Below are positions 37,813-55,930 of a DNA stretch of 64,000 nucleotides, one piece after another. The DNA comes from Chitinophagales bacterium (GTDB lineage: Bacteria > Bacteroidota > Bacteroidia > Chitinophagales > LD1). The notes under the pieces are model-generated. The model was not told the origin of the DNA. It did not search any database and saw nothing but the letters and a program-made list of their open reading frames with translations. The DNA lies in contig JAXLUN010000004.1 of the NCBI GenBank assembly GCA_046329535.1, positions 76,443 through 140,442 on the forward strand. The letters are read 5' to 3'. The number at the start of each line of letters is the position of its first letter. Position 1 is the stretch's first letter. Both the position numbers and the translations under genes were made by a program.

Positions 37813-38165
37813 CTTCCAAAAACATGGAAGTGGATTTCGGACATCGGAAATCGACTTCCAAAAACATGGAAGTGGACTTCAGACACGGGAAGTCGACTTC
37901 CAAAAACATGGAAGTGGACTTCGGACACGGGAAGTCGACTTCCAAAAACATGGAAGTGGACTTCAGACACGGGAAGTCGACTTCCAAAAACATGGAAGTG
38001 GACTTCAGACACGGGAAATCGACTTCCAAAAACATGGAAGTGGATTTCGGACATCGGAAATCGACTTCCGAAAACATGGAAGTGGACTTCGGACACGGGA
38101 AATCGACTTCCAAAAACACGGAAGTGGATTTCGGACATCGGAAATTGACCTCCCAAAACAGGGAA
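37813..38165. repeat. Tandem array of 8 complete 42-bp units plus a degenerate ninth, equal to 16 palindromic GGAAGT-SG-ACTTC(C) sites at ~21-bp spacing
   Basis: Unit boundaries fall at 37813, 37855, 37897, 37939, 37981, 38023, 38065 and 38107. The consensus is CTTCCAAAAACATGGAAGTGGACTTCrGACAyGGGAArTCGA. The unit junction forms the perfect 14-bp palindrome GGAAGTCGACTTCC. Confidence 0.95.
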
Positions 38166-38291
38166 CCTATTTAGTGGTGTTAGAAATGAAATGAACTGAA
38201 AAGAACAAGCAACCGGTAACAGAAAAAAAGCAGAGCAATTAAAAATAGAAGTTGAAAACGAAAAGATTCATAACCACTAAACCACAAAGCT

Positions 38292-39266
38292 ATGATTAAT
38301 CCAATTCGTCTTTGTAACAATTTATTTAATGAGAAGAGCCTATCAGATGCCAACCTTCGTAGTTTTTGCGAAGATCATCTGATACGCCTGTCAAACAACA
38401 ATCCGGGAGCTATATACAGTACGCTTATTTCAGAAACTACCAATAAGTATACGGCTTACTATGGTAAAATGACCAGCCAGGCGGTTCAACTCTCTATACA
38501 GGAAAGTATGACGGCCAGTATGAAAGACGCAAAAGTTTTAGTAGAAGAGAAGATACGCTCTTTCTATGGTTTGGCACTTTTCAAGTTTGGCGAAGGCAAT
38601 CCTTCTTTTCAAATGCTTTATCCACTTGGCCTGGGCGAGTATATGAACGCCAAAATAGGCGATGTAAATAAACTATACGAACGTTTGGTAATCAATGCCA
38701 CCACTTTGCTTAATGCCGATTTTCCGGCCGAGGTTACAGCTCTTGATAACGCGGTGGCGGCTTATTTATCAGCCCGTACCGCCCAGGAAAATGCCTTTAG
38801 TTTGGTAGATAATTTAATTACCGGCAAAAACAGCGACCGCCTGGCGCTGACCGTTCAGCTAACCAAAAACTTTTTAATAGTAGCCTCTAACAACATTAGC
38901 AACCCCGACCAGTTTAATGACTTTTACGATGCGGCCTATCTGCCTATTTCCGAGAGTAGCCAAAGCATAACCGAAGAAGGAATAATTACCGGCAAACAGA
39001 TTATTAATATACAGCCCGATGGGGTGGTTTATACCAACCAAACCATGATAGAACTTTACAACCCCGGCCTGACCACCCTGCGCTACTACTTTGCCCCGGT
39101 ACCCGGTGTAGACCCTAACGAATCGGAACCATTTGTAGAGGTAGCGGCCAATGAGCAAATAACAAAATCTGCAACCGCCCTGGGCCTTAGCCCCGACCGG
39201 CAGTTTTTTACCGTTCAAAATCAACAGGAATTAACCGGCAGTTATAAAGTAATTATAAAGCCCTAA
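38292..39266 (+). CDS. Hypothetical protein (helical N-terminal ~220 aa, beta-rich C-terminal ~100 aa)
   Basis: 324-aa ORF starting ~130 bp downstream of the 42-bp array. It has no signal peptide and no recognised motif. Confidence 0.5.
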   Translation: MINPIRLCNNLFNEKSLSDANLRSFCEDHLIRLSNNNPGAIYSTLISETTNKYTAYYGKMTSQAVQLSIQESMTASMKDAKVLVEEKIRSFYGLALFKFGEGNPSFQMLYPLGLGEYMNAKIGDVNKLYERLVINATTLLNADFPAEVTALDNAVAAYLSARTAQENAFSLVDNLITGKNSDRLALTVQLTKNFLIVASNNISNPDQFNDFYDAAYLPISESSQSITEEGIITGKQIINIQPDGVVYTNQTMIELYNPGLTTLRYYFAPVPGVDPNESEPFVEVAANEQITKSATALGLSPDRQFFTVQNQQELTGSYKVIIKP

Positions 39267-39404
39267 CCATATGCACCAAGTAGATGGCCTTATTCTGTTA
39301 CTCTGTTTTATTCTGCTGGCAGCTTTATTACTGCTGGTGCGCCTCATGCTGTAAGGCATGGTAAAAAGTAGTTCATTAATTAATCACCATAAAAACCAAA
39401 TGTT

Positions 39405-39617
39405 ATGAAAAAAGTATTCTTCGCCCTCTTCGCCCTAACCCTTCTGGTATCTTTTAACAGCTGCACCAAGTGCTGGGTATGTAAAGATAAAACCAGCACT
39501 ACTTACGAACACGTTAAGTATTGCGATAAAGATTATGACAAAGGCGATGTAGACGCCATTATAGAAGATATGGAAGATAACGGCTACTCGTGCCACGCCT
39601 CTACTATGGCCTTGTAA
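39405..39617 (+). CDS. Small Cys-rich lipoprotein
   Basis: 70 aa with the signal and lipobox MKKVFFALFALTLLVSFNSC, followed by TKCWVCKDK..YCDKDYDKGD..YSCH. Confidence 0.45.
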   Translation: MKKVFFALFALTLLVSFNSCTKCWVCKDKTSTTYEHVKYCDKDYDKGDVDAIIEDMEDNGYSCHASTMAL

Positions 39618-39690
39618 ACAACTTACACCAGGTAGGCCGGTTAGCCGGCTTGCCTGGTATTTTTTACTTCTAAAAACAATTCTATAACGC

Positions 39691-40017
39691 ATGAAAAAAT
39701 ACACCGCCAAAATGACTCTGACCACCCTGCTGGTAGTCCTGTTTTGCCAAACAACTATTGCACAGGAAAGCGAGCAATTAACCCTTACCGGCAAGGTAAA
39801 CAGCATAGCTTTTTATCCACCCACTGCCGATGTGCCACCGGGCATAAGTGGCCACACTGTAAGCTTTACCGACCAAAATGGCAAAGCCCGCAACCAGGGC
39901 ATTGACAAAGCCACCTTTGATAAACTGCAAGAAGCCCTTGAAACCAAAACCCTTGATAAAATAACCGTGCACTACTACGCCAAACACGAAACCGTAGAAG
40001 TTGTATTAAAGAAATAA
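39691..40017 (+). CDS. Small secreted protein
   Basis: 108 aa with the signal peptide ...LLVVLFCQTTIAQE. Confidence 0.45.
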   Translation: MKKYTAKMTLTTLLVVLFCQTTIAQESEQLTLTGKVNSIAFYPPTADVPPGISGHTVSFTDQNGKARNQGIDKATFDKLQEALETKTLDKITVHYYAKHETVEVVLKK

Positions 40018-40052
40018 AAAATACTCTGCCCTACATAAACCACACTATTACT

Positions 40053-40664: not shown

Positions 40665-43600
40665 ATGGGGGCCAACAATACATACACTTTGTTAAGGCGG
40701 GTAAAACACGGCATTGTCATCTGGTTATGCAGCATGACAGGGCTGGTTCATGGCCAACTAAACCCGCCCTGGTTTGTTACCCAAAATCCTCCGCCCTCCA
40801 GTGCCTGTGGTATTGTTAATCCTATTATTTCAGTAGTAACCCCAAGCCCAATATGCTATAACCGCACGGTAACCATTCGCCTAAACTATGATATAGCCCT
40901 CGATACCATATATCTTGACTTTGGCGATAACAAAGACATTACCATTGTAGGGGCCTCCATTTTGCCAAATACTATGGATGTAACCCATGTGTACACTTTT
41001 ACCCCGGCCGATAGTTGCCCCTCTATTGCTTTCGGCCCACCGGCTATATCCTGTATAGTAAAAGCCTATTTTTTTAAGCGATGCGGCCCATCGGCTTATA
41101 GTTATGTATCTACTACCAATAACTCCATGGCCTTTAGGTTTAAACCCCGGGTAAGGTTTCAAACCACCAACTACTTAACTAATTACGTGCCGGGGCAAAA
41201 CCTGCTGGTGGCCTGCAACACTAATTGTGTGCAGTTAGATATGAGTAACTGCTGCACCAATACCTACATAGGAACCGACTCAACTGACTATTGGTGGAGC
41301 TTTGGTGATGGAACCCCCAACGATACCTTTAGCAACACCCCCGATGGAAACTTTATAAGCCCGGTGCATTGCTATGCGCATCCTTCGGTAAGCCCGGCAT
41401 ACTACACCATTAAGCTGCATGCAGAAAACGAATGTGGGGTAAGCGAAGATTGGGGTAAATTATACGTACAGGAAATTGCCGATGTGCAGGTTGACCCGGG
41501 GCCCTATTGCACCGGCAGTGCAGTAGGGGTGCATATTACCGCCAGCGGAGGCCTGGGTAACCCTGTTTATTCAACTACGGTAACCCCACCGGGGTGTTCA
41601 ACTATTGCCGGAGACTCTACCGCCAACCCCCAAATAACCTTTACCTGTGCCGGCACCTTTACCATTAACAGCGCCTATGGTTTTTGTTCCGAAACACGAA
41701 CTATAACCGTAGACCAAGGGGTAGATATGCAGCAGAGCCCGGTGCCCGATGATTGTTATACCGGCAGCAACAGTATTAATCTGGCGGCTTATTTTTTCAG
41801 CTCCGCCACTACCCAATCCAACCATTTTAGCATAACCGATACCGCAGGTGCAATATTGTTTTCGGCTACCGGTTCATCGGTTCCCTCTTCATCTATTACA
41901 CTACCCCATGCCGGGCGGTATTTTGTGTATGATAGTTCAATAACTACTTGCAACACGGTTGTGTTTACCGATACATTTTATTTGCAACCGCCTTTATCTA
42001 TAGCCTTGCCTGCCGATACGATAGTTTGTCTTCAAACCCTATTTGTATTACCCAATGTGCCGGGTGCTGTTCGCACCTTAAACGGTACCCCCACCACCGA
42101 TACTTTTTATGTGTACCCTGCGGGCGTGTATACCGTAACCTATACCCCAATTTCGTGCGGCAGCAGTGTATCGTTTACTATTACCACTAAAGGCACCGAG
42201 TCATTGGTAAGCGACTATACCTATTGCTCATCACCGGGGGCCATTGTGCTATCGGGTACGCAGCCCAACACTTTATTTAGCGGGCCTCATATCAGCAACG
42301 ACACCCTATACGGAAATGCAGCCGGCCCCGGCAGTCATGTATTTTACTCCTCCTATACAGCTGCCGATGGTTGTATATTCTTAGATACGGCTCAGGTTCA
42401 AATTCTATCTTCCATAAATGCCGGAGTAACATTGCCCGATACAGTTTGTGCCGGCTCACCGGTTACATTAAGTAATATTCCGGCAGGTCTATCAACCACT
42501 ACCAACTGGGGCGATGGCACAACAGATAATAATGTGACCCACACCTACAATATAAGTGGCACTATGTTTTTATCCATACGTTTTTCCGATGGCACTTGCG
42601 ATACTACTATGACCGATACGCTGTTGGTTATTGATGCTCCGGCATCCACCTTTTTATTATTGCCCGATACCGCCTGTAGCGGAGACACTGTAACTATACA
42701 GTTTACACCCAATACCCTGTATCAACAGCAATGGGAATATAACGGAAACACTTCCTTAACGCCCCCTGTAATGGTTGCCAATAACAGCAGCAGTGCCGTT
42801 ATATGCCAAACCGTTACTTTATCTGTATCGTACCCGCAATGCCCAACTGCCGTTAGCAGCCAACCGGTATGTTTCTATCCGGCCACACAGGCCATTGCCG
42901 ATATTGATTTCGACTCGGTATGCAGCCCCTTGCCGGTTACTATTATTAACAATTCAATAGTGGGACCGGGTGCAACTTATCAGTGGTTTAAAAACGGGGT
43001 TCTGTTTAGCACAACCAATGCACCCCTGCAACAAGATACCTTAAATGCCTATACAACCGACACCACCTATACATATATGTTGGTCGTTAACTCGTGTGGA
43101 GCAAACGATACCGTATACCAGGCAGTAACAGTTCACCCGGTCAACTTTACTCCGGTGTTATATGTTTCTTCGCTTTCACCGTGCCGGTATGATACCATAC
43201 TTTATTGGACCTCTCCCATAACGGGGTGCACGGCCAATTATAATTTTGGAGATGGTTCCGCTATACAGGCAGGCTCTGCCGATACTATAAGCCATATATA
43301 CACTACCGAAGGAAACTATGCAGCTACTGTAACCATGTATTGCGCTTGCAAAACAAAGTCCGATAATCTTACTATTCAGGTTCAGCCCGGGCCGCAGTTA
43401 TCTGTATCCGATCCGGTAGATACTTGCAAAAATCAGCTGGTAACAATCAATAGCTCGGTAACCGGCACCATAGCCCCGGGTAGCTACACAACCTGGTTTG
43501 GCGATGGCGCTACTAATATCGGCTCTGCCAATCCTACCCATACCTATACACAAGATGGAACTTACCAGGGTCAAATGTTGGTGTATGGCATTAATGGTTG

Positions 43601-44438
43601 CCGATCAGATACTGCTACATTTAGTATTGATATTTTTAACGTCCCCAACATTAATACAAACCCTGCCGATACTTTTGCCTGCAGCGCAATACTTACACAA
43701 CTTTCGGTTGATACCGGCACAGTAAATTCAACCTATGTATGGAATATAGCGTGTCATAGTCAGCATACGCAGGTTACTACTTACAATGGGGCCTTGCCTT
43801 TTTACGCAGAAGAGGCGGGGGAGTATGAAATTTTACTGTATGCCTACAATAACAATCATCCGGCCTGTTTAGCTAAAGCGGATAGTTTTAGTGTAACGGT
43901 ATACGAATCACCAATGGCATTCTTTACCGTAGACTTTCCCTATATCTCTCAATCTGAGTATGTGTTCCCTATTCATAATATGAGCACACCTAATACCAAT
44001 ACCTATATATGGAACTTTGGAGATAATACCTACAGTAATGAGGTTAATCCGGAAGCACATGCTTATACGGCATTTGGATATTACGATATCGTATTAACCG
44101 CCCGAAATGGCCCTTGTGAAGATACTGCATTGTCACAGGTTTTTGCAGATCCCTACCTGCAGTTATTTATACCGAATGTATTTACTCCCAACTCGGATGG
44201 GATAAATGATGTGTTTGAGATATACGGCAATAAGCAGGATATAGATTATTTACATGTGCGAGTTTACAATCGTATAGGCGAGAAAGTGTTTGATTCATAC
44301 AACCTGGAATTTAAGTGGGACGGAACCTATAAAAGTGAGCCTTTGGTTCAGGCAGTGTATGTATATACTGTTGAAATATCGGCTATTCATGATGCAGATA
44401 AACGGTTAGTAAAGGGAAGTATAACACTACTGCGGTAA
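40665..44438 (+). CDS. Large PKD-repeat surface protein with a T9SS type-B C-terminal domain
   Basis: 1257 aa with at least 5 PKD-like WxFGDG signatures (WWSFGDGT, NWGDGTT, YNFGDGS, TWFGDGAT, IWNFGDNT). The C-terminus is FIPNVFTPNSDGINDVFEIYG..VYNRIGEKVF..WDGTY..YVYTVEI..GSITLLR. Confidence 0.85.
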   Translation: MGANNTYTLLRRVKHGIVIWLCSMTGLVHGQLNPPWFVTQNPPPSSACGIVNPIISVVTPSPICYNRTVTIRLNYDIALDTIYLDFGDNKDITIVGASILPNTMDVTHVYTFTPADSCPSIAFGPPAISCIVKAYFFKRCGPSAYSYVSTTNNSMAFRFKPRVRFQTTNYLTNYVPGQNLLVACNTNCVQLDMSNCCTNTYIGTDSTDYWWSFGDGTPNDTFSNTPDGNFISPVHCYAHPSVSPAYYTIKLHAENECGVSEDWGKLYVQEIADVQVDPGPYCTGSAVGVHITASGGLGNPVYSTTVTPPGCSTIAGDSTANPQITFTCAGTFTINSAYGFCSETRTITVDQGVDMQQSPVPDDCYTGSNSINLAAYFFSSATTQSNHFSITDTAGAILFSATGSSVPSSSITLPHAGRYFVYDSSITTCNTVVFTDTFYLQPPLSIALPADTIVCLQTLFVLPNVPGAVRTLNGTPTTDTFYVYPAGVYTVTYTPISCGSSVSFTITTKGTESLVSDYTYCSSPGAIVLSGTQPNTLFSGPHISNDTLYGNAAGPGSHVFYSSYTAADGCIFLDTAQVQILSSINAGVTLPDTVCAGSPVTLSNIPAGLSTTTNWGDGTTDNNVTHTYNISGTMFLSIRFSDGTCDTTMTDTLLVIDAPASTFLLLPDTACSGDTVTIQFTPNTLYQQQWEYNGNTSLTPPVMVANNSSSAVICQTVTLSVSYPQCPTAVSSQPVCFYPATQAIADIDFDSVCSPLPVTIINNSIVGPGATYQWFKNGVLFSTTNAPLQQDTLNAYTTDTTYTYMLVVNSCGANDTVYQAVTVHPVNFTPVLYVSSLSPCRYDTILYWTSPITGCTANYNFGDGSAIQAGSADTISHIYTTEGNYAATVTMYCACKTKSDNLTIQVQPGPQLSVSDPVDTCKNQLVTINSSVTGTIAPGSYTTWFGDGATNIGSANPTHTYTQDGTYQGQMLVYGINGCRSDTATFSIDIFNVPNINTNPADTFACSAILTQLSVDTGTVNSTYVWNIACHSQHTQVTTYNGALPFYAEEAGEYEILLYAYNNNHPACLAKADSFSVTVYESPMAFFTVDFPYISQSEYVFPIHNMSTPNTNTYIWNFGDNTYSNEVNPEAHAYTAFGYYDIVLTARNGPCEDTALSQVFADPYLQLFIPNVFTPNSDGINDVFEIYGNKQDIDYLHVRVYNRIGEKVFDSYNLEFKWDGTYKSEPLVQAVYVYTVEISAIHDADKRLVKGSITLLR

Positions 44439-44546
44439 GTTTTATTCGTCTTTAACAAAAACAGTTGACTGAATCCATAAAATATAAATCACCCGTCAAG
44501 TTATTTGCCAGAAAGTATAATCATAAACTCAACAAATACTAACCCC

Positions 44547-45659
44547 ATGAAACAAAGTATCCTCCTGCTGCTCGCAATCAGTATGATGCAATCGGCATTT
44601 GCACAAGATTATCTCAAAACCAAAAAAGGCGATGAGGTTCCGGTAAAGATTATATCCGTAACCGATACCAAAGTAGAATATAAACCCTTCTACTATCAGG
44701 AAGGCGGTTCGCTGTTTTTCGATAAAAAAGACATACAGTCTATTAAGTATGCCGATGGCCGCCTGCTTAATTTCGATGCCCCTGTAGTTCCTGTTTCATC
44801 GGGTATAAATACATATAGCAGTAGTGCCCCCAGCACCTCATCGGCCGATGCGCTGAAAGGTTTAGAGAAGTTAACCGGCCAGATAACCGAACTAAACAAA
44901 GGCCAAACAGACCAAACAAAAGCACTAACGGAAACCTTAAATGCATTGAATGCTAATATTACATCGCTTAAAACGGCCATAGAGCAAGGCAACACCGAAA
45001 CTAAAAAGCAGAACGAAGAGGTGTCGTCTAAACTGAATTCCTTAAACAGTTCGGTCAAAGAGCTGAATGAAACCACACAAACCAAAAGTGGAGCAGAGGC
45101 CAATGCCATAGTGCCGCGCAAATTTGGTATGGGGGTAAGCTTTATTACCAACTATCTGTTAAATGCATTTAGTGATGATGAAGGGGCGCCTATCATCAAT
45201 CAATACAACGGTTTATTTATGGGTGCCGGGTTTAACCTGATAGTTTCCACACGGATGGATAAAAAGGTCGGTTTCAGATATGAACCGGAATTCAGTGTGG
45301 CATCATCATTCAGCCGAAGTAAAGATGGAAATGATATATCGGCTAATCGAATAAGTATATTCAGTTTTGGCTCCCGCTTTTTGGGTGTTGCCCGCAGAAA
45401 CCGTGTAAACATATACGCAGGTCCGTCCATAACTATTTTCGGAGTAGTGGCCTCTTTACGTGAAAATGAGTTGACAACAACCAGTGCTATGGTGGGTGCC
45501 GGTTTTGGTTTGCATTTTGGTGGTGAGTATCTGGTGCATCCCAATTTTGGTATTAACATGGAATCGGGTATGCAGTTGTATGGTTTGTTTCCCAAAGGGG
45601 GATATGCCGAGGGGGTATTTTCAACCTATGGTCGTTTAGGCGGCCGGTTCTACTTCTAA
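44547..45659 (+). CDS. Outer-membrane protein with an N-terminal domain, a coiled coil and a C-terminal beta-barrel
   Basis: Signal peptide MKQSILLLLAISMMQSAFAQ at the ATG at 44547. The middle has coiled-coil heptads (LTGQITELNKGQTDQTKALTETLNALNANITSLK). The C-terminal ~180 aa have an alternating beta pattern ending GRLGGRFYF. Confidence 0.6.
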   Translation: MKQSILLLLAISMMQSAFAQDYLKTKKGDEVPVKIISVTDTKVEYKPFYYQEGGSLFFDKKDIQSIKYADGRLLNFDAPVVPVSSGINTYSSSAPSTSSADALKGLEKLTGQITELNKGQTDQTKALTETLNALNANITSLKTAIEQGNTETKKQNEEVSSKLNSLNSSVKELNETTQTKSGAEANAIVPRKFGMGVSFITNYLLNAFSDDEGAPIINQYNGLFMGAGFNLIVSTRMDKKVGFRYEPEFSVASSFSRSKDGNDISANRISIFSFGSRFLGVARRNRVNIYAGPSITIFGVVASLRENELTTTSAMVGAGFGLHFGGEYLVHPNFGINMESGMQLYGLFPKGGYAEGVFSTYGRLGGRFYF

Positions 45660-45676
45660 AATCATTGTCAAACTTC

Positions 45677-47843: not shown

Positions 47844-48569
47844 ATGGGTCAGAAAACAAGTCCAATATCTAATCGCCTCGGCATCGTTCGTGGATGGGAA
47901 AGTAACTGGTATGGCGGCAAAGATGCAGCTATGAAACTGGTGGAAGACGAAAAAATTCGTAAGTATTTAACTGCGCGCATCAACAAAGGAGGTATCTCTC
48001 ATATCATTATTGAGCGTACCATGAAACGTGTTACTGTAACAATACATACAAGCCGTCCGGGTATTATTATTGGCAGAGGAGGCACGGAGGTTGATCGTTT
48101 GAAAGAAGAGTTGAAAAAACTGACTGGAAAAGAGGTTCAGATAAACATAGTTGAAATTCGCAGACCGGAATTAGAGGCTGCTATTGTTGGTGAAACTGTT
48201 GCCAAACAGTTGGAGGCACGTATCAACTACCGCAGAGCGTTAAAGATGGCTATTGCATCAGCTATGCGTATGGGTGCTGAAGGAATAAAGATTCGTGTGA
48301 GCGGTCGTATTGGTGGAGCTGAAATGGCAAGAACTGAAGAATATAAGCAAGGAAGAACACCTCTTCATACTTGGAGAGCTGATATCGACTACGCTATATC
48401 TGAAGCACATACCGTTTATGGCAAAATTGGTATCAAGGTATGGGTTTGTAAGGGCGAGGTTTACGGTAAGAAAGACTTAACCGGAGCATTTGCTACTGAG
48501 CAAAAAGAGGAAAAACGTCAACCGAAAGGAAGAGTTACCGGTGGCACCAGACCAAGAAAAGAGAACTAA
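47844..48569 (+). CDS. rpsC: 30S ribosomal protein S3
   Basis: [25 protein letters not shown]..., with KH and S3-C domains; 241 aa. Confidence 0.95.
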
Positions 48570-48613
48570 GAGTAGAAAGTAATTTTAGATAAAGAGAGAA
48601 AACAAATTCAGTC

Positions 48614-49036
48614 ATGTTATTACCTAAGCGGACGAAATTCAGAAAAACCCAGAAAGGGAGAGTTGCTGAAACAACACAAAGAGGTCACGAGATCGCTTTC
48701 GGAACTTATGCTCTTAAATCATTAGAGAGCGGAAAGATAAGCAACAAACAAATTGAGGCAGCACGTGTGGCTTTTACCCGTTTCATGAAACGTGAAGGGA
48801 AAGTTTGGATTCGCATATTTCCGGATAAGCCAATTACCAAAAAGCCACTAGAGGTTCGTATGGGTAAAGGAAAGGGTAACCCGGAAGGTTGGGAAGCTCC
48901 TATTCAGGCTGGTAGAATTATTTTTGAAGTAGATGGCGTTTCACGCGAAGTAGCAGCAGAAGCCATGTTACTGGCAGCTCATAAAATGGGCGTAAAAACC
49001 AAATTTATCACCCGCAGAGATGCAGTGGAGGGATAG
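48614..49036 (+). CDS. rplP: 50S ribosomal protein L16
   Basis: [16 protein letters not shown]...; 140 aa. Confidence 0.95.
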
Positions 49037-49070
49037 GATAGTATTTTAACAAACAAGCTATAACCATATT

Positions 49071-49289
49071 ATGGGAGCAAATAAAAAATTGAATCAGGAA
49101 GACATTAAGCAGTTTGTAACGGAGGACTTAATTGCCAAAGTATCTGCAGATACTGCTGAATTGAAACGTCTGGAATTTAATCACGCGGTTACACCGCTTG
49201 ACAATCCGCTTAGCATTCGTGCCAAGAGAAGAGATGTGGCCAGATTGCGCACCGAATTGACAAAACGTAATAACGAGAAAAAAGCTTAA
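49071..49289 (+). CDS. rpmC: 50S ribosomal protein L29
   Basis: 72 aa with conserved operon position, and the motifs ELKRLEFNHA and IRAKRRDVARLRTEL. Confidence 0.9.
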   Translation: MGANKKLNQEDIKQFVTEDLIAKVSADTAELKRLEFNHAVTPLDNPLSIRAKRRDVARLRTELTKRNNEKKA

Positions 49290-49295
49290 TCAGCC

Positions 49296-49550
49296 ATGGA
49301 AAGAAATCTCAGAAAAGAAAGAATTGGTTTAGTAACCAGTGACAAAATGGATAAAACCATTACCGTTTCAATTGAAAGAAAGGTAAAGCACCCTATTTAT
49401 GGCAAGTTCGTGAAGACTACCAAAAGTTTCAAAGCACATGATGAAAAGAATGATGCTAAAGCCGGTGATACAGTAAAAATCAGTGAGACTCGTCCGCTTA
49501 GTAAGACTAAACGTTGGAGACTGGTAGAAGTGGTTGAGCGTGCTAAGTAA
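49296..49550 (+). CDS. rpsQ: 30S ribosomal protein S17
   Basis: [45 protein letters not shown]; 84 aa. Confidence 0.95.
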
Positions 49551-49597
49551 TCCTAATCGGGTCGCAGTTAATTTATATAAAACAGTAATTAAGTAAT

Positions 49598-49966
49598 ATG
49601 TTACAGCAAGAATCAAGAGCCAATGTGGCTGACAACAGCGGAGCAAAAGAAGTTTTGGTTATCCGTGTGTTAGGAGGAACCAGAAGAAGATATGCCAGCA
49701 TTGGTGACAAGGTAATTGTTGCTATTAAAAAGGCAATACCTACCGGAGGTGCTAAGAAAGGAACTGTTTCTACAGCTGTGGTGGTTAGAACCGCTAAGGC
49801 AATCAGAAGAAAGGATGGTTCATACATTCGTTTTGACGACAATGCAGTTGTGTTGTTAAATGCCCAGGATGAACCTAAAGGAACACGTATCTTCGGACCA
49901 GTTGCCCGTGAACTTCGTGATAAGCAGTTTATGAAAATTATTTCACTGGCTCCGGAAGTACTTTAA
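49598..49966 (+). CDS. rplN: 50S ribosomal protein L14
   Basis: [30 protein letters not shown]; 122 aa. Confidence 0.95.
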
Positions 49967-49998
49967 TTGATAACAGGATTTTAAGAAAATAAAGAATT

Positions 49999-50307
49999 AT
50001 GAAGTTTCATGTAAAAAAGAATGACGAAGTAATTATTATAGCAGGCGATGATAAAGGAAAGAAAGGCCGTATCATTGATGTAGATCGTCAGAAAGGGCGT
50101 GTGTTTGTAGATGGTGTTAATCTGAACAGTAAGCACACTAAGCCTAACGCAAAGAATCCTAATGGTGGTATTGTAAAAACGCCCGGCTCAATCAATATTT
50201 CCAATGTTCAGTTACTGTCAGATGGAAAACCAACCAGAATAGGACGTAAAGAGGAGAAGGGCAAAACGGTTCGTTTTTCTAAAAAGACCGGTAAGTCGTT
50301 AGACTAA
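49999..50307 (+). CDS. rplX: 50S ribosomal protein L24
   Basis: KOW motif VKKNDEVIIIAGDDKGKKGRI; 102 aa, in the conserved position after rplN. Confidence 0.9.
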   Translation: MKFHVKKNDEVIIIAGDDKGKKGRIIDVDRQKGRVFVDGVNLNSKHTKPNAKNPNGGIVKTPGSINISNVQLLSDGKPTRIGRKEEKGKTVRFSKKTGKSLD

Positions 50308-50331
50308 TTATAAACCGACAGCAAATTCAAA

Positions 50332-50859: not shown

Positions 50860-50862
50860 TGT

Positions 50863-53800
50863 TTACTTGAGCAAGGTTACAGTGCCTTTGTATTTTCGGT
50901 TTTCACCATCTAAAAATGTAATGTTAGCTACATAGCTATAAACCCCGGGGTAGGCATCTTTGCCCTGATAGGTACCATCCCAGCCGATGGTGGTATTGTT
51001 AGAGTCGAACACCTTTTCGCCCCAGCGGTTAAATACCGTAAGCTTAAAGTAAACGGTATTGAGCGCGTAAACGGTAAACACATCGTTTTGCCCGTTGCCA
51101 TCGGGGGTAAACACGTTAGGAATAAACACTTGCTTATCGGCCAATACATTTACCTGTATTTCGCCAGAGGCTGAGCAGCCATTAGGGTCGGTTACCACTA
51201 CTTGATACTCCATGCTGTGAATAGCTGAGAAAGCCGGCATGGCACAGTCTGTACAGCTTAGATAAACAGCCGGGCTCCAGCTATAGGTATAGCTATTGTT
51301 GGCCGGAGTAATATTTACGTTTAAGCCTATTTCAGTGCCAAAGGGTATAGAGTCGAAACTGAGGCTGTTAAGGGTAATCTGGTCGGGTTCGGTCACTACT
51401 ACGGAATCGCTGGACTGGCAGTTGTTGGCATCGTTTACGGTGATGTTGTAGGTAGCCGCACCAACGTTTTGCAATGGTGCACCTGCACTGCCATTGCTCC
51501 AGTTAAAATTATAAGGTGGAACGCCCCCGGTAGCGGATACCTGTGCGCCTCCATCGGTATAACCAAAGCAGGTAGCGTTGGTTACGTTATCTACACTTAA
51601 AAGGAGCGGGGCTGGCGATTGCACGGTATAGGTAGCGCTGTCTAAGCATTGATTGGCATCGTATACCACCACACCATAGCTGCCGGCCGAAAGGGCAGAA
51701 GCGGTAGCTGTGTTTTGAACCGGTGTGGTGTTCCACACATACGAGTAGGATGGAGTGCCGCTGTTGGCAGTAACTGTAATGGCAGCATCGGCTGCGGCAA
51801 AACAGCTTTCATCGGTAGCATTAACCAGCGACAGCACCGGATTGGGGTTAACCGTAACCGTTAAGGTATTGCTGGTGTATTGGCAGCCGTTGGCATCTTG
51901 GCCGCTAAGGGTAAAGCTGCCCGACTGGGTAACGTTTATGTTATTGCCGGTAGCATTGTTGCTCCACAGGTAGCTAACGTAGGTAGAGTCGGAAGTTAAA
52001 TCGACATTGCCGCCTTGGCAGAACGCAAGCGGCCCTGCGGCACTGATAGTGGTAGGGGCAGGCGGGTTGTAAGTAACATTGATAGTGTTGCTGATATACT
52101 GACAGCCGGCTGCATCTACTGCGCCCATAAACCAGGCCCCCGGTTGCGATACGGTAACCGAGTTGGCCGTTGAATTATCGCTCCATAAATACGTAGCATA
52201 CACCGAGTCGGAGGTAAGGGTAACGCTGCCGCCCGCACATACAGGTATAGCACCCCCTGCGCTAATGGTAGTAGCAGCCGGAGGGTTTACGGTAACATTT
52301 ACCGTATCGGTAGCAAAGCAAGCACCGTTTATACCTACTAAAACATAAGGAGTGGTAACCGGTGCTGCAGTAGTATTGGTGTTGGTGTAAGTTGGGTTAG
52401 AAACGGTAGAGTCGGACAGGTGAAGCGAAGGCTGCCACAAGTAGGTAAAGCCCGCAGCGGGTGCGCTGCCTATTTGCACGGTGCCGCCCGAACAAACCGC
52501 TACATCGGGGCCGGCATTTGAAACCGGAGCAGCCGTAATGGTAAGGGTTTGGCTAACCTGAGGCGATACACAGCCTCCATCGGTTACATCGAGGGTAATG
52601 GTTTTATTGCCAAAGCCGCTCCACAGCACCTGATAAGGGCCCTGGCCGCTGCCGCTTTGAATAGTGCCGCCATTAAAGTTCCAGGTGTAGTTGGCGCTGG
52701 TAGGCGAGGTGCCGGTGTAGTTAACGGTTACCGGATTGTTTTCGCACACGGTATCGGGTAAAATAACAAACGACTGAGCGCCTCCGCCCAAGATAGTTAC
52801 ATCAATATTATCTACATCGGCACAGCCCCAGCGGTCGGTTACCACTACATTGTAGGTAGTGTTTACCACCGGATTAACCACATACGGGTTGGCGGTTGAG
52901 TTGCCGGGGTTCCAGGTATACACATAAGGGGCCGAACCCAGCAGGGTAGAAGCCGAAAAGCTGAGCGTGCTGCCGCCACAAACGGCCGTATCGTTAGGTA
53001 TAGTTAATTGCGGACAAAGGTTTACTTCAATTACCGATACACTTTGGGTATTGCAGGGGTAGTCGTTCCATTGGCCCGAAGAGTAGATTTGCGGACAATC
53101 TTCGCCATTGGCGCAGCGGTAGGCCTCGCTGCTTTGGCAGCCGCCCAACCAATCGGGAAAACTGCAACACGAAGAGTTCTGCCCGTTATTATTCGGCTCG
53201 CCCGGTGCCCAGTTCAGGTAGGTCATAGGGGTGCCATCCAGGGTTACCCAGGTGCCTTCATTGGCCTGGTCGGTGTAGCCCACCCACACAGCCTGATTGC
53301 CCGATATAATGCCCGCAGCATTGAGTGCCGCCACCACGGCTGCGTTTTCGGCAGCATCGTTAAACACTACCAGGTGCGCGCCCAATTGGCGGGCGGCAGT
53401 TTCGGCAGCATTGGCATCTTGCGAGGTAGGGTTTATAAAATATAAGCTGCATTGCTGGCCTTGCACCCCGCTCAGCTCGTTGTAACCCGCAGCGGCAAAG
53501 GCAGCGCGCAGGGCAAACAAATCGCAGCCCGGAGGGCCGGTGCACACCTGTGTGGTTACAGTGGCCGTAGCCGTAGCCTGGCAACTGTAGCGGTCGGTTA
53601 CTTGTACCTGATACGAGGTAGTAGCGCTGGGGGTAATATCAAGAATAGACGAGTTGCCTACGGTAGCGCCACCGGGCAGTTCGCTCCAGGTATAGCTGTA
53701 AGGTTGCGAGCCCAAAATAGTAGTAGCCGAAGCCTGTGTGTGGTAGCCCGAGCAAACCGGCAGGGCCGGAACCGTAGTGGTTATTTGCGGACAAAGGTTT

Positions 53801-54375
53801 ACTTCAATTACCGATACACTTTGCCTATCGCAAGGCAGGTCGTTCCAGTTTCCACCGCCATATATCTGCACACAATCCTCCCCGTATTGACAGCGCCATG
53901 CCTGGCTGCTTTGGCAACCGCCCAAGGCATCGGGAAAATTGCAACACGATGACCCCTGCCCGTTGTTGTTAGGCTCGCCCGATGACCAGTTAAGGTAGGT
54001 CATAGGCGTGCCGTCAAGCGTTACCCAGGTGCCTTCGCTGGCAGCATCGGTGTAGCCTATCCACACAGCCTGGTTGGCCGATATAATGCCCGCTGCATTA
54101 AGGGCCGCTACCACAGCCGTGTTTTCGGCTGCATCGTTAAACACCACCAGGTGGCCGCCCAGTTGCTGAGCCGCTACCTCGGCTACGTTGGCATCTTGCG
54201 AAGTAGGGTTAATAAAATACATACTGCACGGCTGACCCTGCACGCCCGTAAGCTCTATATAGCCCGCATTGGTATAGGCGGTTCTGATTGCCTGAATATT
54301 GCAACCCACGGGTTGTGCTACCCCTATAAAACCAGTAAAGACCAACAAACTCAGTAACAATAAGAGGTTTTTCAT
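50863..54375 (-). CDS. Secreted protein with two tandem C-type lectin-like domains, Ig-like/SprB repeats and a T9SS type-B C-terminal domain
   Basis: Signal peptide MKNLLLLLSLLVFTGFIGVAQ. The CTLD signature occurs twice: WIGYTD..EGTWVTLDGTPMTYLNW..GEPNNNGQ..GEDCVQIY..GNWNDLPC. SprB-type repeats are present (GTPSYSYVWN, GGVPPYNFNWSNG). The C-terminus is FIPNVFTPDGNGQNDVF..VFNRWGEKVF..WDGTYQGK..GVYSYV..GTVTLLK. Confidence 0.85.
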   Translation of the reverse strand: MKNLLLLLSLLVFTGFIGVAQPVGCNIQAIRTAYTNAGYIELTGVQGQPCSMYFINPTSQDANVAEVAAQQLGGHLVVFNDAAENTAVVAALNAAGIISANQAVWIGYTDAASEGTWVTLDGTPMTYLNWSSGEPNNNGQGSSCCNFPDALGGCQSSQAWRCQYGEDCVQIYGGGNWNDLPCDRQSVSVIEVNLCPQITTTVPALPVCSGYHTQASATTILGSQPYSYTWSELPGGATVGNSSILDITPSATTSYQVQVTDRYSCQATATATVTTQVCTGPPGCDLFALRAAFAAAGYNELSGVQGQQCSLYFINPTSQDANAAETAARQLGAHLVVFNDAAENAAVVAALNAAGIISGNQAVWVGYTDQANEGTWVTLDGTPMTYLNWAPGEPNNNGQNSSCCSFPDWLGGCQSSEAYRCANGEDCPQIYSSGQWNDYPCNTQSVSVIEVNLCPQLTIPNDTAVCGGSTLSFSASTLLGSAPYVYTWNPGNSTANPYVVNPVVNTTYNVVVTDRWGCADVDNIDVTILGGGAQSFVILPDTVCENNPVTVNYTGTSPTSANYTWNFNGGTIQSGSGQGPYQVLWSGFGNKTITLDVTDGGCVSPQVSQTLTITAAPVSNAGPDVAVCSGGTVQIGSAPAAGFTYLWQPSLHLSDSTVSNPTYTNTNTTAAPVTTPYVLVGINGACFATDTVNVTVNPPAATTISAGGAIPVCAGGSVTLTSDSVYATYLWSDNSTANSVTVSQPGAWFMGAVDAAGCQYISNTINVTYNPPAPTTISAAGPLAFCQGGNVDLTSDSTYVSYLWSNNATGNNINVTQSGSFTLSGQDANGCQYTSNTLTVTVNPNPVLSLVNATDESCFAAADAAITVTANSGTPSYSYVWNTTPVQNTATASALSAGSYGVVVYDANQCLDSATYTVQSPAPLLLSVDNVTNATCFGYTDGGAQVSATGGVPPYNFNWSNGSAGAPLQNVGAATYNITVNDANNCQSSDSVVVTEPDQITLNSLSFDSIPFGTEIGLNVNITPANNSYTYSWSPAVYLSCTDCAMPAFSAIHSMEYQVVVTDPNGCSASGEIQVNVLADKQVFIPNVFTPDGNGQNDVFTVYALNTVYFKLTVFNRWGEKVFDSNNTTIGWDGTYQGKDAYPGVYSYVANITFLDGENRKYKGTVTLLK
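53008..54303 (-). repeat. Intragenic tandem duplication (~780-bp period) of the CTLD-plus-linker module
   Basis: Residues ~25-196 and ~284-456 are near-identical. At DNA level, for example, GCGGACAAAGGTTTACTTCAATTACCGATACACTTTG occurs at both ~53010 and ~53790. Confidence 0.85.
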
Positions 54376-54486
54376 ATTACACTCATTTTATTTGCGTGCC
54401 AAAAGTATATTTTACAGGGGAAGAAAAAAGAACGAAAGGGTTAAAATATTAGCCGCTATGGTGCCGGATGGGGCGGGGTGTAAACA

Positions 54487-54516
54487 CATCGGGCGGCCCA
54501 TGCGGGCCGCCCGATG
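54487..54516 (-). terminator. GC-rich hairpin between two minus-strand genes (terminator/attenuator-like)
   Basis: CATCGGGCGGCCC (54487-54499) is the exact reverse complement of 54504-54516, with a 4-nt loop. There is no clear U-tract on the minus strand. Confidence 0.35.
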
Positions 54517-54535
54517 CTTTGGCAGGCGGTGGCTG

Positions 54536-55471
54536 CTAAAAAGTCAGCGAAAAATCGAGTTGGCTGATAGTGCCTTTGGGTATAGAGAAAGGTACCGCAG
54601 CCGTAATAAACCCGCTGGCAGTGCATTGCACCGTGTAGCTACCATAAGGCACACCCGTAATGCGGTAGATGCCTTCGCGATCGGTAAGGCCGGTGTCGCC
54701 TGTTTCTACCACGGTTATTGTTGCCCCGGCTATGGCTGTGGCATCGGCCTGGTTGGTTACGCTGCCGCGCAGCCCCGCAATGCCGGCCCCGCGAATGATG
54801 TAGAGGACTTTTTCCCACACAAATTGTTCGCGGAGTGCTTCATCGTTTCGAAAGGCGCGTTTCCCGTCTTTACAAAGCTGTATTATCTTATCGTATAAAG
54901 TATTGTTGGCTGTAATTTTAGCCTGTGTTTCCTGCTCACGCAGTTCTTCCTGATCTTGAAAATAGGAGAGAGCCAACTGAAAAGCGGCAGCTACATTGGT
55001 AAAGGTGGCGATAAAGACAGGCGGCATGTTGCCATTGGCTGTTAGCTGAGCGGTGTTATCGGTAAAAAACTGGATACCGCTTGCCATGAGGCCGGTGACG
55101 CTTTCCCAATCGAAGCCGGAAGCGGCCTGGTACTTTTTAGAGCCTGCTGCTTCGAGGGCAATTTTTTGCATGGCTCCTTTAAAGTCTTCGGCATCTTCAA
55201 TATAGCCTTTTAGCAGCTGCCAGGTATTGAGACATTTGGTTGCAGCGGTTTCGCATTCCAGCTTTATGGCTTTTACTACGGCTGCGCGGAAGTCTTCATC
55301 GGGCAGGGCTTCGGCTGCTGCCAGTTCGGTGAGGAGCGAGTTAAAATAGGGCAGGTCGTATTTAGGTTTAACGAGAGCGAGTTCGGGCTGTTTTCGAATG
55401 GCTGCCCGGATAACCATGCGGCCTGCCGAATAGAAGTCGGGCTGGCTGCAGTGATATTTTGCATCAGACAT
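54536..55471 (-). CDS. Hypothetical protein with a helical N-terminal ~225 aa and a C-terminal carboxypeptidase-regulatory-like beta-sandwich
   Basis: 311 aa. The C-terminal GSVTNQADATAIAGATITVVETGDTGLTDREGIYRITGVPYGSYTVQCTASGF fits the CarboxypepD_reg pattern. There is no signal peptide. Confidence 0.55.
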   Translation of the reverse strand: MSDAKYHCSQPDFYSAGRMVIRAAIRKQPELALVKPKYDLPYFNSLLTELAAAEALPDEDFRAAVVKAIKLECETAATKCLNTWQLLKGYIEDAEDFKGAMQKIALEAAGSKKYQAASGFDWESVTGLMASGIQFFTDNTAQLTANGNMPPVFIATFTNVAAAFQLALSYFQDQEELREQETQAKITANNTLYDKIIQLCKDGKRAFRNDEALREQFVWEKVLYIIRGAGIAGLRGSVTNQADATAIAGATITVVETGDTGLTDREGIYRITGVPYGSYTVQCTASGFITAAVPFSIPKGTISQLDFSLTF

Positions 55472-55639
55472 AGTTGTTTGTTTTAGAGATTAAGAAATAG
55501 AGAACCATGACAATAAGCGTTCGAACTGCTTGTGTTAGAAACGCATGGAGGAGTTTTAATATTGTGATTGGACTGTCATGGTATTGTCATAAATACAGCG
55601 GCAGACAGAAGTTAGTAAGATGGATGCTGAAAGGGTAGA

Positions 55640-55930
55640 GAGAAAAACAGCAGTACGCAAGAGTAAAGCCTGTATGGGTAGGAGAAAAGGCGGTGCCGGT
55701 AAGAGAAAAACCCGTATGAGGAGGAGAAAAGGGGGTACCGGATAGTGCCCGGGCGGTATGGGAAAGAGAAAAGGCGGGATTAGGCGGAGAAACGCCTGTG
55801 TTAGAAAGTGCAGAGGCTGAGTTGGGAAGAGAAAAGGCGGTACCGGTAAGAGAAAAACGCGCGGGTAGTAAGAGAAAAGCCTGTATAGGCAGGAGAAAGG
55901 GGGAGGCCGGATTTAGAAGGAGAAGACACC
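55640..55930. repeat. Degenerate 21-bp-phased repeat array with a conserved GAGAAAA core
   Basis: Cores fall at 55640, 55661, 55682, 55703, 55724, 55766, 55787, 55829, 55850, 55872 and 55893, on a 21-bp lattice with degenerate units at ~55745, ~55808 and ~55914. The array lies in the 710-bp divergent intergenic region. Confidence 0.8.

Follow-up and report, generated by a model that had tools for sequence, protein, structure and literature searches.

LytTR-activated promoters (AgrA P2/P3, ComE and the HdrR/BrsR 'LytTR regulatory systems') carry one or two pairs of direct repeats just 5' of a promoter without the housekeeping consensus. The direct repeats of LytTR sites are 12 bp apart (PMC6193735). 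In type III toxin-antitoxin and abortive-infection systems (ToxIN, CptIN, TenpIN), tandem repeats of about 40 nt lie directly 5' of a single gene, and repeat length is kept despite diverging sequence in a solo unit of patchy distribution. Plasmid iterons and the F-plasmid sopC centromere (12 repeats of 43 bp, with an inverted repeat in each) are helically phased tandem protein-binding repeats, and the promoter VNTR contingency loci of bacterial surface genes, in which the classical repeats are 1-8 bp long, show copy-number polymorphism 5' of a strain-hypervariable gene. Each of these systems shares properties with two loci in the DNA analysed here, a stretch of 64,000 nucleotides from a Chitinophagales bacterium (hereafter the window), where a repeat array with a period of 42 or 21 bp precedes a gene for a protein of ~320 residues. 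The features of the two loci are the following.

37264-37698, plus strand: gene for a stand-alone LytTR DNA-binding domain (144 aa; Pfam PF04397, E 4.4e-15)
37813-38165, plus strand: array 1, 8.4 copies of a 42-bp unit (TRF: period 42, 91% matches)
38166-38291, plus strand: spacer from array 1 to the ATG, A-rich and unstructured, the presumed core promoter and leader
38292-39266, plus strand: 324-aa family-1 gene, helical domain and jelly-roll-like beta domain
39405-39658, plus strand: 70-aa lipoprotein-like gene, then a strong intrinsic terminator (39627-39658)
40665-44438, plus strand: PKD/CHU_C (type-B CTD) gene, 1257 aa (Pfam), a neighbour outside the conserved module (synteny absent at homologue loci)
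50863-54375, minus strand: Lectin_C/SprB-repeat/CHU_C gene, 1170 aa, a neighbour conserved in sister strain L010 only
54400-54407, minus strand: TACTTTTG, Bacteroidetes-type -7 box of the 1170-aa gene, a boundary marker outside the module
54487-54516, minus strand: GC-rich hairpin right after the stop codon of the 311-aa gene, 13-bp stem and 4-nt loop (sequence reading; TRF reports a 13-bp repeat)
54536-55471, minus strand: 311-aa family-2 gene, helical domain and CarboxypepD_reg (transthyretin-like) domain
55472-55639, minus strand: spacer from array 2 to the ATG, G-poor (10% G on the sense strand)
55640-55930 (approximate), minus strand: array 2, ~14 degenerate 21-bp units (TRF and in-register reading)

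Both arrays, which a preliminary description had picked out by eye, are real: TRF and a lag scan (200-bp windows, lags 10-69) returned them as the only strong signals at lag 21 or 42 in the window. Array 1 reached a self-match of 0.96 at lag 42 and array 2 one of 0.57 at lag 21; no other place in the window exceeded 0.45, and no other lag gave more than 0.42 anywhere. Each unit of array 1 contains two related GGAAGTSGACTTC sites, which makes 15 palindromic sites at alternating 20/22-bp spacing, and this motif occurs nowhere else in the window (chance expectation, 1.3). Its GGAAGTCGACTTCC variant is a perfect, loop-less 14-bp palindrome. The LytTR gene lies directly 5' of array 1, 115 bp away; its longest ORF begins at GTG 37213, and the ATG at 37264 gives the 144-aa product also seen in orthologues. 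Array 2 was found by TRF at 55659-55856 (period 21, 9.4 copies, 58% matches), and reading the minus strand in register extended it to ~14 units, from ~55897 to ~55645, with a weak 42-bp superperiod. The core (C)CTTTTCTC is present in 11 of the ~14 units, the rest of each unit being a variable spacer of ~12 bp, and CCTTTTCTC occurs four times in the array, with 0.46 occurrences expected in the whole window. Array 2, which is 99% identical in sister strain L010, sits in a divergent intergenic region (55472-56178), a correction to the preliminary description; the same region serves a giant plus-strand ORF with a signal peptide, which begins at 56179 and extends beyond the window edge (at least 2607 aa). 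The arrays end 127 and 168 bp before the ATG of the 324-aa and 311-aa genes, respectively, close to the ~130-170 bp first estimated.

The proposed architecture of the two proteins held up as well. AlphaFold2 models (pLDDT 86 and 89.5) gave both a helical N-terminal part of ~220 residues and a beta-rich C-terminal part of ~90-100 residues, and neither protein has a signal peptide or a PorP/SprF domain. In the 324-aa protein, which had no match in a Pfam search, the helical domain spans residues ~19-208 and the jelly-roll-like domain residues 226-323; in the 311-aa protein, residues 234-310 form the CarboxypepD_reg domain recognized by Pfam. Relatedness, which could not be established by eye, extends to one part only: the helical domains align collinearly in hhalign (70%, E 3.9e-5, 189 columns) and are probably distant homologues, whereas the beta domains differ in fold, jelly-roll-like versus transthyretin-like. 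Both helical-domain types are found with either kind of beta domain within an unannotated Bacteroidota superfamily of ~1050 clusters to which both proteins belong. The products are acidic (pI 4.75 for the 324-aa and 5.08 for the 311-aa protein; superfamily median 5.2), which makes it unlikely that the array-linked proteins themselves bind DNA. Probably, the encoded protein is non-enzymatic and consists of a helical domain and a swappable beta-sandwich.

A 21/42-bp array directly 5' of a full-length homologue was present in at least 12 independent lineages, so that array and gene indeed form a recurring module, as had been suspected from the two copies in the window. Arrays of 42 bp (41 bp once) directly precede family-1 genes in this window and at L001/L004, L003, L006/L007, L014, L015, L018, L020 and L021, and 21/42-bp arrays precede family-2-type genes in this window/L010, L011 and L025. 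All period-21/42 arrays in the 327 kb of fetched DNA lie just 5' of a superfamily gene, with none elsewhere; the helix-only short forms of the superfamily and the full-length members L009 and L024 have no array. The period is constant across lineages while the unit sequences are unrelated, which points to helical phasing as the shared constraint. The L025 array has an additional subperiod of ~11 bp. In the degenerate arrays (L011 and array 2), the spacers of 12 bp have drifted and only a 9-bp core has stayed in strict 21-bp register, a signature of selection on binding sites; at L011, 9 of 12 units have an intact GTTTGCGCC core and the other three a single mismatch in it. Several units contain loop-less perfect palindromes (GGAAGTCGACTTCC, CAGAGCTCTG in L015 and L020 alike, CTAACGTTAG and CAAACCGGTTTG), which are possible dimer-binding sites and incapable of forming RNA hairpins. 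GGAA-N4-6-TTCC is found in 5 of 9 family-1 units, with ~0.003 expected per unit.

We propose, at about even confidence, that the arrays are DNA-level cis-regulatory elements made of phased protein-binding sites just 5' of the core promoter of one gene. Their location 5' of genes agrees with the earlier placement in promoter regions, and the arrays would be promoter-proximal. The distance from array end to ATG, 46-79 bp in eight family-1 lineages, can accommodate ~10 bp followed by a core promoter with a short leader, the arrangement of LytTR-activated promoters. The canonical Bacteroidetes -7 box (TAnnTTTG) is present 5' of ordinary window genes and missing at array-linked genes, which fits activator-dependent promoters; the spacer of array 2 (55472-55639) contains neither this box nor a terminator hairpin. 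Each array would provide 6-19 sites for a sequence-specific DNA-binding protein, their spacing by multiples of the helical repeat (10.5, 21 or 42 bp) turning every one of them to the same face of the duplex. For array 1, the most likely binder is the product of the stand-alone LytTR gene 115 bp 5' of it; the binder of array 2 would be encoded elsewhere. As at LytTR-activated promoters, the sites stand just 5' of a presumed promoter without housekeeping consensus, and their centres recur every ~21 bp (in the degenerate arrays, 9 bp of core and 12 bp of spacer), in agreement with LytTR direct-repeat geometry. The sites are, however, 6-19 in number and largely palindromic, and no gene for a membrane inhibitor or a kinase partner adjoins the LytTR gene. 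A LytTR gene lies immediately 5' of the array in this window, at L001 and at L004, with a weak one in L006, and no LytTR or other conserved regulator was found near the array at L003, L015, L018, L020, L021 or any family-2 locus. LytTR adjacency is limited to one clade, the majority of array-bearing loci lacking such a neighbour, which, like the missing arrays of L009 and L024, counts against the proposal. A comparison of L001 with L004 shows the highest conservation of the locus in the LytTR gene and the intergenic DNA beside it (98-99%). At the array 1 locus and L001, the DNA from the LytTR gene to the array is, like the leader, poor in sense-strand G, so that the array may lie within a transcript, as an intercistronic stretch.

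We considered the possibility that the repeats, transcribed with or ahead of the gene, act as RNA rather than as DNA, for instance as a repeat RNA bound to the protein encoded 3' of it, in the manner of a type III toxin-antitoxin or abortive-infection-like system, or as a repetitive leader at the 5' end governing stability or translation. The module is solo and mobile-looking in varied contexts, two loci have defence-type neighbours (SIR2/ThsA-like at L018, AriA/OLD-like at L020), near-identical strains differ by replaced alleles of these genes, a pattern common among conflict genes, the sense strand is depleted in G on both sides of some arrays, and short hairpins are possible in family-1 units. 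Yet, the palindromic terminator that defines such systems was absent between repeats and gene at all 11 loci tested, where spacers are unstructured, and the loop-less palindromes of several units are impossible as RNA hairpins. Half of the array 1 units break the best sense hairpin by a C-A mismatch and retain it on the antisense strand only through a G-U pair, and the family-2 arrays keep the 9-nt core alone, so that most units could not fold alike. The arrays are also longer (up to 9-14 units) than in the type III systems, and the ~11-bp subperiod of L025 is sensible for DNA and not for RNA units. The acidic proteins are twice as large as ToxN-type toxins and have no ToxN/Kid-like fold, and PADLOC returned no match. 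An RNA-level function is thus less likely than DNA-level binding sites, and we regard it as unlikely. It is very improbable that the arrays are neutral or selfish minisatellites, slippage-prone repeats kept by descent: family-1 arrays are 91-97% homogeneous, indicating ongoing concerted evolution, and copy number is polymorphic, but in at least nine lineages the unit has turned over completely with 42 bp (41 once) and the position before the ATG retained. Degenerate arrays hold core and register without homogenization, the helix-only forms and all other sampled intergenic DNA have no arrays, and the shared GGAA...TTCC palindrome is far above chance.

The preliminary description saw in the array and the ~320-aa protein a module dedicated to giant T9SS type-B CTD adhesins. 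CHU_C genes do adjoin both modules in the window, the second cassette is repeated in L010, a PorP/SprF gene and a giant gene lie near the L011 module, and Por_Secre_tail proteins are encoded within a few kb at L003, L006 and the P0007 locus. L010 is, however, a sister strain and its synteny not independent, and in most other lineages the neighbours are unrelated: the genes 3' of homologues encode collagen/Peptidase_S74 proteins, SSB, PIF1 helicase, DHFR, SIR2-like and OLD-like ATPases and some type-A CTD proteins, nearby T9SS cargo being mostly type A or on the opposite strand. In the window, neither CHU_C gene has an array directly 5'. The terminator at 39627-39658, probably the end of the array 1 transcription unit, separates the 324-aa and 70-aa genes from the 1257-aa gene; the terminator-like hairpin at 54487-54516 would make the array 2 unit monocistronic, and the 1170-aa gene has its own -7 box. 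The proteins lack a signal peptide and PorP/SprF domain, as noted, and nothing points to a role as adhesin partners. The dedicated cassette is largely refuted by the absent synteny and very improbable, the giant genes beside the arrays being incidental neighbours. Still less probable is a replication origin or partition site with the ~320-aa protein as its Rep/ParB-like binder, even though phased ~21-bp repeats, and inverted repeats inside 42-bp units, beside a ~320-aa gene recall iterons and sopC. The surroundings are those of a chromosome, with housekeeping genes (ClpB, ribosomal proteins), a scan for viral contigs was negative, the array is always 5' of a gene start, in presumed promoter position, and the acidic proteins gave no ParA, ParB or Rep domain and no match to a winged-helix or HTH fold. 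That the repeats encode a 14-aa repeat peptide, such as a multi-core precursor, is barely credible: three frames of array 1 are open and gene callers place ORFs over the L003 and L004 arrays, but strand, frame and start codon are inconsistent across loci, most frames contain stops at L001 and L007, the peptides would bear no relation to one another, and the repeats of family 2 are degenerate.

Judged from sequence comparison, the array-linked protein gene is a hot spot of allele replacement among near-identical strains. The 324-aa gene is a replacement island relative to L026; the proximal 91 bp of the array 1 spacer are 95.6% identical in a sister strain, the gene itself only 82%. Relative to L010, residues 31-210 of the 311-aa protein, its helical part, are swapped for a divergent allele (dS 1.38), whereas dS is only 0.04 in the adjoining GNAT gene. 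Two contigs with an identical encoded protein have 3.1 and 4.1 repeat units, copy numbers being taken from short-read assemblies, in which breaks or collapses are common at these arrays (the L014 and L026-L029 contigs begin within the array, and the L021 array has an N-gap). Compared with promoter VNTR contingency loci, the units are 42 bp long, and changes preserve helical phase instead of altering promoter spacing. If the arrays are indeed phased binding sites, cooperative filling of many in-phase sites may produce strong or switch-like activation, rather than repression, and the arrays would drive, or adjust, the expression of a hypervariable acidic protein. Since gain or loss of a whole 42-bp unit keeps the helical phase, copy number may offer a heritable way to tune its output.

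A periodicity scan of the whole window (200-bp windows, lags 10-69) gave a self-match above 0.45 at arrays 1 and 2 only, with values of 0.96 at lag 42 and 0.57 at lag 21, respectively; no other lag exceeded 0.42 anywhere in the window. TRF found the same two arrays, and these sole strong signals confirmed that two array cassettes exist in this Chitinophagales MAG, as claimed in the preliminary description, whose gene coordinates and domain content were also correct. The region contains the following features.

Features of the window around the two cassettes
35023-35340, plus strand: gene of about 105 aa, no annotation
35359-36822, minus strand: gene of about 480 aa, no annotation
37264-37698: stand-alone LytTR DNA-binding-domain gene (PF04397, E 4e-15), directly upstream of array 1
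37813-38165, plus strand: array 1
38292-39266, plus strand: 324-aa family-1 gene
39627-39658: strong terminator between the 324-aa/70-aa genes and the 1257-aa gene
40665-44438, plus strand: 1257-aa T9SS type-B CTD (CHU_C) adhesin gene
44505-47065: two unannotated genes (384 aa and 466 aa) after the 1257-aa CHU_C gene
47844-50307: isolated ribosomal-protein block S3, L16, L29, S17, L14, L24 (6876-9341 in L010, the sister strain at cassette 2)
50863-54375, minus strand: 1170-aa lectin/CHU_C adhesin gene
54400-54407: own Bacteroidetes -7 box of the lectin/CHU_C gene, TACTTTTG
54487-54516: hairpin with a 13-bp stem, following the 311-aa gene
54536-55471, minus strand: 311-aa family-2 gene
about 55640-55930, minus strand: array 2
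56179-64000: giant ORF of at least 2607 aa with a signal peptide, continuing past the window edge

Array 1 consists of 8.4 copies of a 42-bp unit with 91% matches (TRF) and, when read in register, is a near-perfect repetition of CTTCCAAAAACATGGAAGTGGACTTCGGACACGGGAAATCGA. Each unit carries two related sites, GGAAGTSGACTTC; the array holds 15 of them, with a spacing that alternates between 20 and 22 bp, and none was found elsewhere in the window (1.3 expected). One variant of the site, GGAAGTCGACTTCC, is a perfect 14-bp palindrome. Array 2 is more degenerate, with 9.4 copies of a 21-bp unit and 58% matches (55659-55856, TRF). On the minus strand, about 14 units could be followed in a 21-bp register from about 55897 to about 55645, and 11 of them contain the core (C)CTTTTCTC with a spacer of variable sequence after it; the 9-mer occurs four times in the array, as compared with 0.46 expected window-wide. 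The layout proposed for cassette 2 was right, with one amendment: the array lies in a divergent intergenic region of 707 bp, which it has in common with the giant ORF. The two strains do not share this giant gene, since homology between the window and L010 stops at 56031. A third small 21-bp-phased repeat (56079-56134; 2.7 copies, TTTGA..AGTA..TAATA) lies 45-100 bp upstream of the giant ORF.

Coding repeats are a less likely reading of the arrays. The arrays are open in several frames (window 37775-38174; L003 7551-7964; L004 5638-5970), and gene callers have annotated spurious 'proteins' of 110-137 aa over them at these three loci. A coding role was rejected, the reading frames being inconsistent between loci.

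Arrays of this type were found well beyond the window, in a data set made up entirely of MAGs and metagenome contigs. On the contigs that carry homologues of the 324-aa protein, a tandem array was present at every locus having upstream DNA. In total, 12 lineages had a 21/42-bp phased array directly upstream of a full-length superfamily member, and two had none (L009 and L024); arrays were also absent upstream of all four helix-only short forms (L016, L017, L019 and L023). All period-21/42 arrays in the 327 kb of fetched DNA sat just upstream of a family gene. The distance from array end to ATG was 46-79 bp in eight family-1 lineages, and the L021 array ended about 40 bp before the ATG, allowing for an N-run scaffold gap inside the array. 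Literature searches returned no description of such arrays.

Arrays at loci fetched for comparison (unit length in bp x copies)
L001/L004: 42 x 6.5
L003: 42 x 9.3
L006 and L007: 42 x 3.1 and 42 x 4.1, respectively, with an identical protein
L014: 42 x at least 3.8, at a contig edge
L015: 42 x 5.9
L018: 42 x 7.1
L020: 42 x 5.0
L021: 41 x 4.1

Short-read assemblies break or collapse at the arrays (the sequences of L014 and L026-L029 start inside the array and L021 contains the N-gap), so that these copy numbers are minimum estimates, and the difference between L006 and L007, the sole polymorphism observed, could be an assembly effect. The unit sequences of the family-1 arrays were mutually unrelated. 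For family 2, the 311-aa homologue of the sister strain L010 had the same array as array 2, and L011, whose protein is 53% identical to the 311-aa protein, had about 12 units of GTTTGCGCC with a 12-bp variable spacer, as well as a second 21-bp array farther upstream. The L025 array comprised 9.3 copies of 21 bp with a subperiod of about 11 bp.

Other repeats were seen at some of these loci. The 1.2-kb intergenic region that contains the two 21-bp arrays of L011 also holds two microsatellites (6188-6462), of 7 bp x 26 (TCATTAC) and 8 bp x 12. L009 has a CRISPR array (1-562; 47-nt repeat GTTGTGTAACAAAGAACGAGAAATACATTCTGAAAGCAAATCACAAC, 30-nt spacers) followed by a 132-bp x 3 tandem repeat (550-957), 1.8 kb upstream of its family-2 gene, which lacks a 21-bp array. 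A 168-bp (4 x 42) tandem repeat of 3.0 copies, 97% identical and with no visible 42-bp substructure, is present in L006 (7061-7559) and L007 (5278-5776). It lies between the family-1 gene with its terminator, on the upstream side, and an 86-aa gene and a PKD/Por_Secre_tail gene, on the downstream side.

The preliminary description had proposed that the array and the ~320-aa protein form a recurring regulatory or accessory module for type-B CTD adhesins. The recurrence of array and gene was borne out in the 12 lineages; the link to adhesins was not, type-B CTD genes following the module only in the window and its sister strain. In other lineages, the neighbours were unrelated and included collagen/Peptidase_S74, SSB, PIF1 helicase, DHFR and some type-A CTD proteins, as well as a SIR2/ThsA-like gene and an AriA/OLD-like ATPase. 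The latter two, both of defence type, adjoin the module in L018 (7603-10104, E 3e-12) and L020 (9469-11004, E 4e-21), respectively. Because neighbours vary by lineage, and because terminators and the lectin gene's own -7 box separate the units in the window, the conserved unit is the array with its gene, and the adhesins are neighbours. A T9SS type-B accessory protein would be a PorP_SprF outer-membrane beta-barrel with a signal peptide, encoded beside a type-B CTD gene; neither PF11751 (PorP_SprF) nor a signal peptide was found in the 324-aa or 311-aa protein, and the T9SS-accessory model is a less likely one.

Between the cassettes lie the two unannotated genes, a C92 amidase, the ribosomal-protein block and a GNAT acetyltransferase, the amidase being upstream of the block on the opposite strand and the acetyltransferase downstream. 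The block lacks its usual S10/spc neighbours (L22 before, L5 after) and is kept in the sister strain. Rfam and tRNA scans of the window gave no matches. The 384-aa protein (44505-45659) is a coiled-coil protein with weak HBL/MakE-like and phage 'hemolysin' matches; as a candidate relative of the ~320-aa families it proved unrelated to either. On the other side of array 1, the ~480-aa and ~105-aa genes are syntenic with the LytTR-array-gene unit in the window and L001/L004, and L003 has the 480-aa gene only, its orthologue showing weak Trans_reg_C and TPR matches (E ~0.01). This divergent ~480-aa neighbour was rejected as a part of the module, being kept within one clade only.

Searching the family-1 alignment against 1.84 billion representative proteins yielded 1050 clusters (defined at 50% identity) at E <= 1e-3, of which 589 were at E <= 1e-10. 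All named superfamily members, from cluster look-ups and the profile search, were 'hypothetical' proteins of uncultured Bacteroidota. AlphaFold2 models (pLDDT 86 and 89.5) agreed with the helical N-terminal and beta C-terminal parts described for both ~320-aa proteins. The helical domain matched no model in Pfam, NCBIfam, PHROGs or PADLOC; a sequence-profile search of the PDB gave no match for family 1 and, for family 2, one to the transthyretin-like domain only, and Foldseek matches in the PDB were limited to the C-terminal domain, all of them beta-sandwiches. Three architectures occur: the helical domain with a jelly-roll-like beta domain, as in the 324-aa type, whose C-terminal Foldseek matches are Ena, PirA and cupins (E ~1e-3); the helical domain with CarboxypepD_reg, as in the 311-aa protein and in 7 of 71 diverse members; and the helical domain alone, in some cases with a lysine-rich tail. 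L025 joins a family-2-type helical domain to a family-1-type C-terminus.

BLASTP gave no match between the 324-aa and 311-aa proteins, and hhalign with small profiles of the two helical domains (A1 vs A2) gave 9%. With the 71-sequence profile, hhalign aligned family 2 at 70% probability (E 3.9e-5) over 189 collinear columns; three bridging sequences (P0100, P0103 and P0107) matched both family profiles, and the order of helices and other secondary-structure elements was the same in the AlphaFold2 models of the two proteins. The helical domains are probably distant homologues; the beta domains have different folds. The proteins are acidic (pI 4.75 for the 324-aa and 5.08 for the 311-aa protein; superfamily median 5.2) and their invariant residues form no obvious catalytic set, which makes a role as DNA binders or enzymes unlikely.

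Comparison with the sister strains showed both genes to be hypervariable. Between the window and L010, the ribosomal genes, the GNAT gene and array 2 were 98-100% identical (array 2, 99%), as compared with 78.6% for the 311-aa gene. This divergence was concentrated in residues 31-210 (dS 1.38, dN/dS 0.21), the dS of this replaced helical segment contrasting with 0.04 for the adjacent GNAT gene. Between the window and L026, the sister at cassette 1, flanking genes were 99.7-100% identical, the proximal spacer of array 1 95.6% and the 324-aa gene 82% (dS 0.65 gene-wide; beta domain 70%). In both strain pairs, the ~320-aa gene was the only strongly divergent segment; each gene is therefore an island where, against a near-clonal background, divergent alleles of ancient origin are kept, indicating allele replacement by recombination. 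The finding of a single such island in two independent pairs is what would be expected if balancing or diversifying selection acted together with recombination, and hence points to a role in biotic interactions.

The sole invariant of the arrays is their period (about 10.5, 21 or 42 bp), not their sequence. In the degenerate arrays (array 2 and L011), a 9-bp core is kept at an exact 21-bp register and the 12-bp spacers drift. Perfect palindromes that have no loop occur in several units (GGAAGTCGACTTCC; CAGAGCTCTG, shared by two lineages; CTAACGTTAG; CAAACCGGTTTG), and 5 of the 9 family-1 units have in common the element GGAA-N4-6-TTCC, of which about 0.003 would be expected per unit. The spacers between array and ATG are unstructured, G-poor leaders. 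The TAnnTTTG -7 box, present before ordinary genes of the window, was not found near the arrays, and scans for sigma-70-type promoters and terminators showed no enrichment. A function at the DNA level is favoured by the invariant period, the kept core, the palindromes, the position before the ATG and the missing -7 box: the arrays are most likely helically phased arrays of putative binding sites, and neutral minisatellites are a less likely reading.

The sequence (C)GTTCTTT(R) was observed 30-48 bp upstream of the array start at four family-1 loci of one clade (window 37783-37789; L001 ~7620; L003 ~7496; L006 ~5765) and also just before the -7 box of the lectin gene (window 54427-54434, minus strand). 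It was rejected as a shared promoter element, its frequency not being significant window-wide (3 found vs 2 expected), and no ECF-like -35 partner was seen.

Sites of LytTR activators are 9-bp direct repeats with a 12-bp spacer, about 21 bp from centre to centre (PMC6193735), and are found some 10 bp before the -35 element of the promoter that they regulate (PMC6193735, PMC4227749). The repeat spacing is matched by array 2 and L011, whereas array 1 alternates between 20 and 22 bp; classic sites are pairs of direct repeats, unlike the present arrays. The 46-79-bp spacers appear compatible with a LytTR-type position before a -35 element. In the window and L001/L004, the array is directly adjoined by a LytTR gene, and L006 has a weak match (E 0.003); such a gene is absent beside most arrays, among them array 2 and those of six other loci. 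On the basis of the LytTR-like geometry and the abutting gene, we propose LytTR as the occupant of array 1. The adjacent regulator would bind this array cooperatively, an unlinked factor would likewise occupy array 2, and occupancy may activate an otherwise weak promoter. Gain or loss of units would keep the helical phase and could tune output, as may be the case for L006 versus L007.

The closest alternative is that the array acts as an RNA, as in type III toxin-antitoxin or Abi-like systems. Type III loci consist of 31-62-nt repeats in about 2-6 copies, followed by a palindromic terminator and the toxin gene, the repeats being transcribed and processed into unit-length antitoxic RNA (PMC3401426). 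The present layout resembles these loci, the repeats (a 42-bp unit in 3-9.3 copies) preceding the gene as in ToxIN, CptIN and TenpIN. The patchy occurrence as a solo unit, the presence of defence-type genes beside it in L018 and L020 and the hypervariability of the gene would also fit. Yet, unlike in those systems, no terminator-like hairpin separates repeats and gene in the 11 spacers, and folding energies were at or above those of shuffled sequence. The palindromes in the units are loop-less, the family-2 units are degenerate, and half of the array 1 hairpins have sense-strand mismatches. Furthermore, the protein is large, acidic and not ToxN: the ToxN/AbiQ endoribonuclease has about 150-170 aa, whereas the proteins described here have 311-324 aa and no Pfam, NCBIfam, PHROG or PADLOC match. 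Phased repeats might also be iterons or centromere elements; this is less likely, given that the loci encode no Rep (winged-helix) or ParB/ParA domains, that the context is chromosomal, with a negative viral-contig scan for family 1, and that the protein is acidic.

A wider reading, which we regard as rather unlikely, is that of an undescribed Bacteroidota-wide module combining such an array with a hypervariable acidic protein. The array would either be a phase-preserving copy-number 'rheostat', its unit locked to four helical turns (42 bp) and its sequence free, or belong to a type III-like Abi system as a repeat-RNA partner of a new class. The acidic protein, with its ancient divergent alleles, would act as a determinant, specific to the strain, in conflicts with phages or between cells.

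In practical terms, the arrays break short-read assemblies and yield spurious ORF calls. These findings define a large superfamily, absent from Pfam, NCBIfam, PHROGs and PADLOC, that is tied to a searchable DNA signature in which the sequence turns over completely and the period stays at 21/42 bp. Should the arrays be operators with many in-phase sites, they would show with unusual clarity, in natural bacterial promoters, how selection acts on helical phasing and on the number of sites, and would offer a handle on Bacteroidota regulation beyond the housekeeping promoter type.
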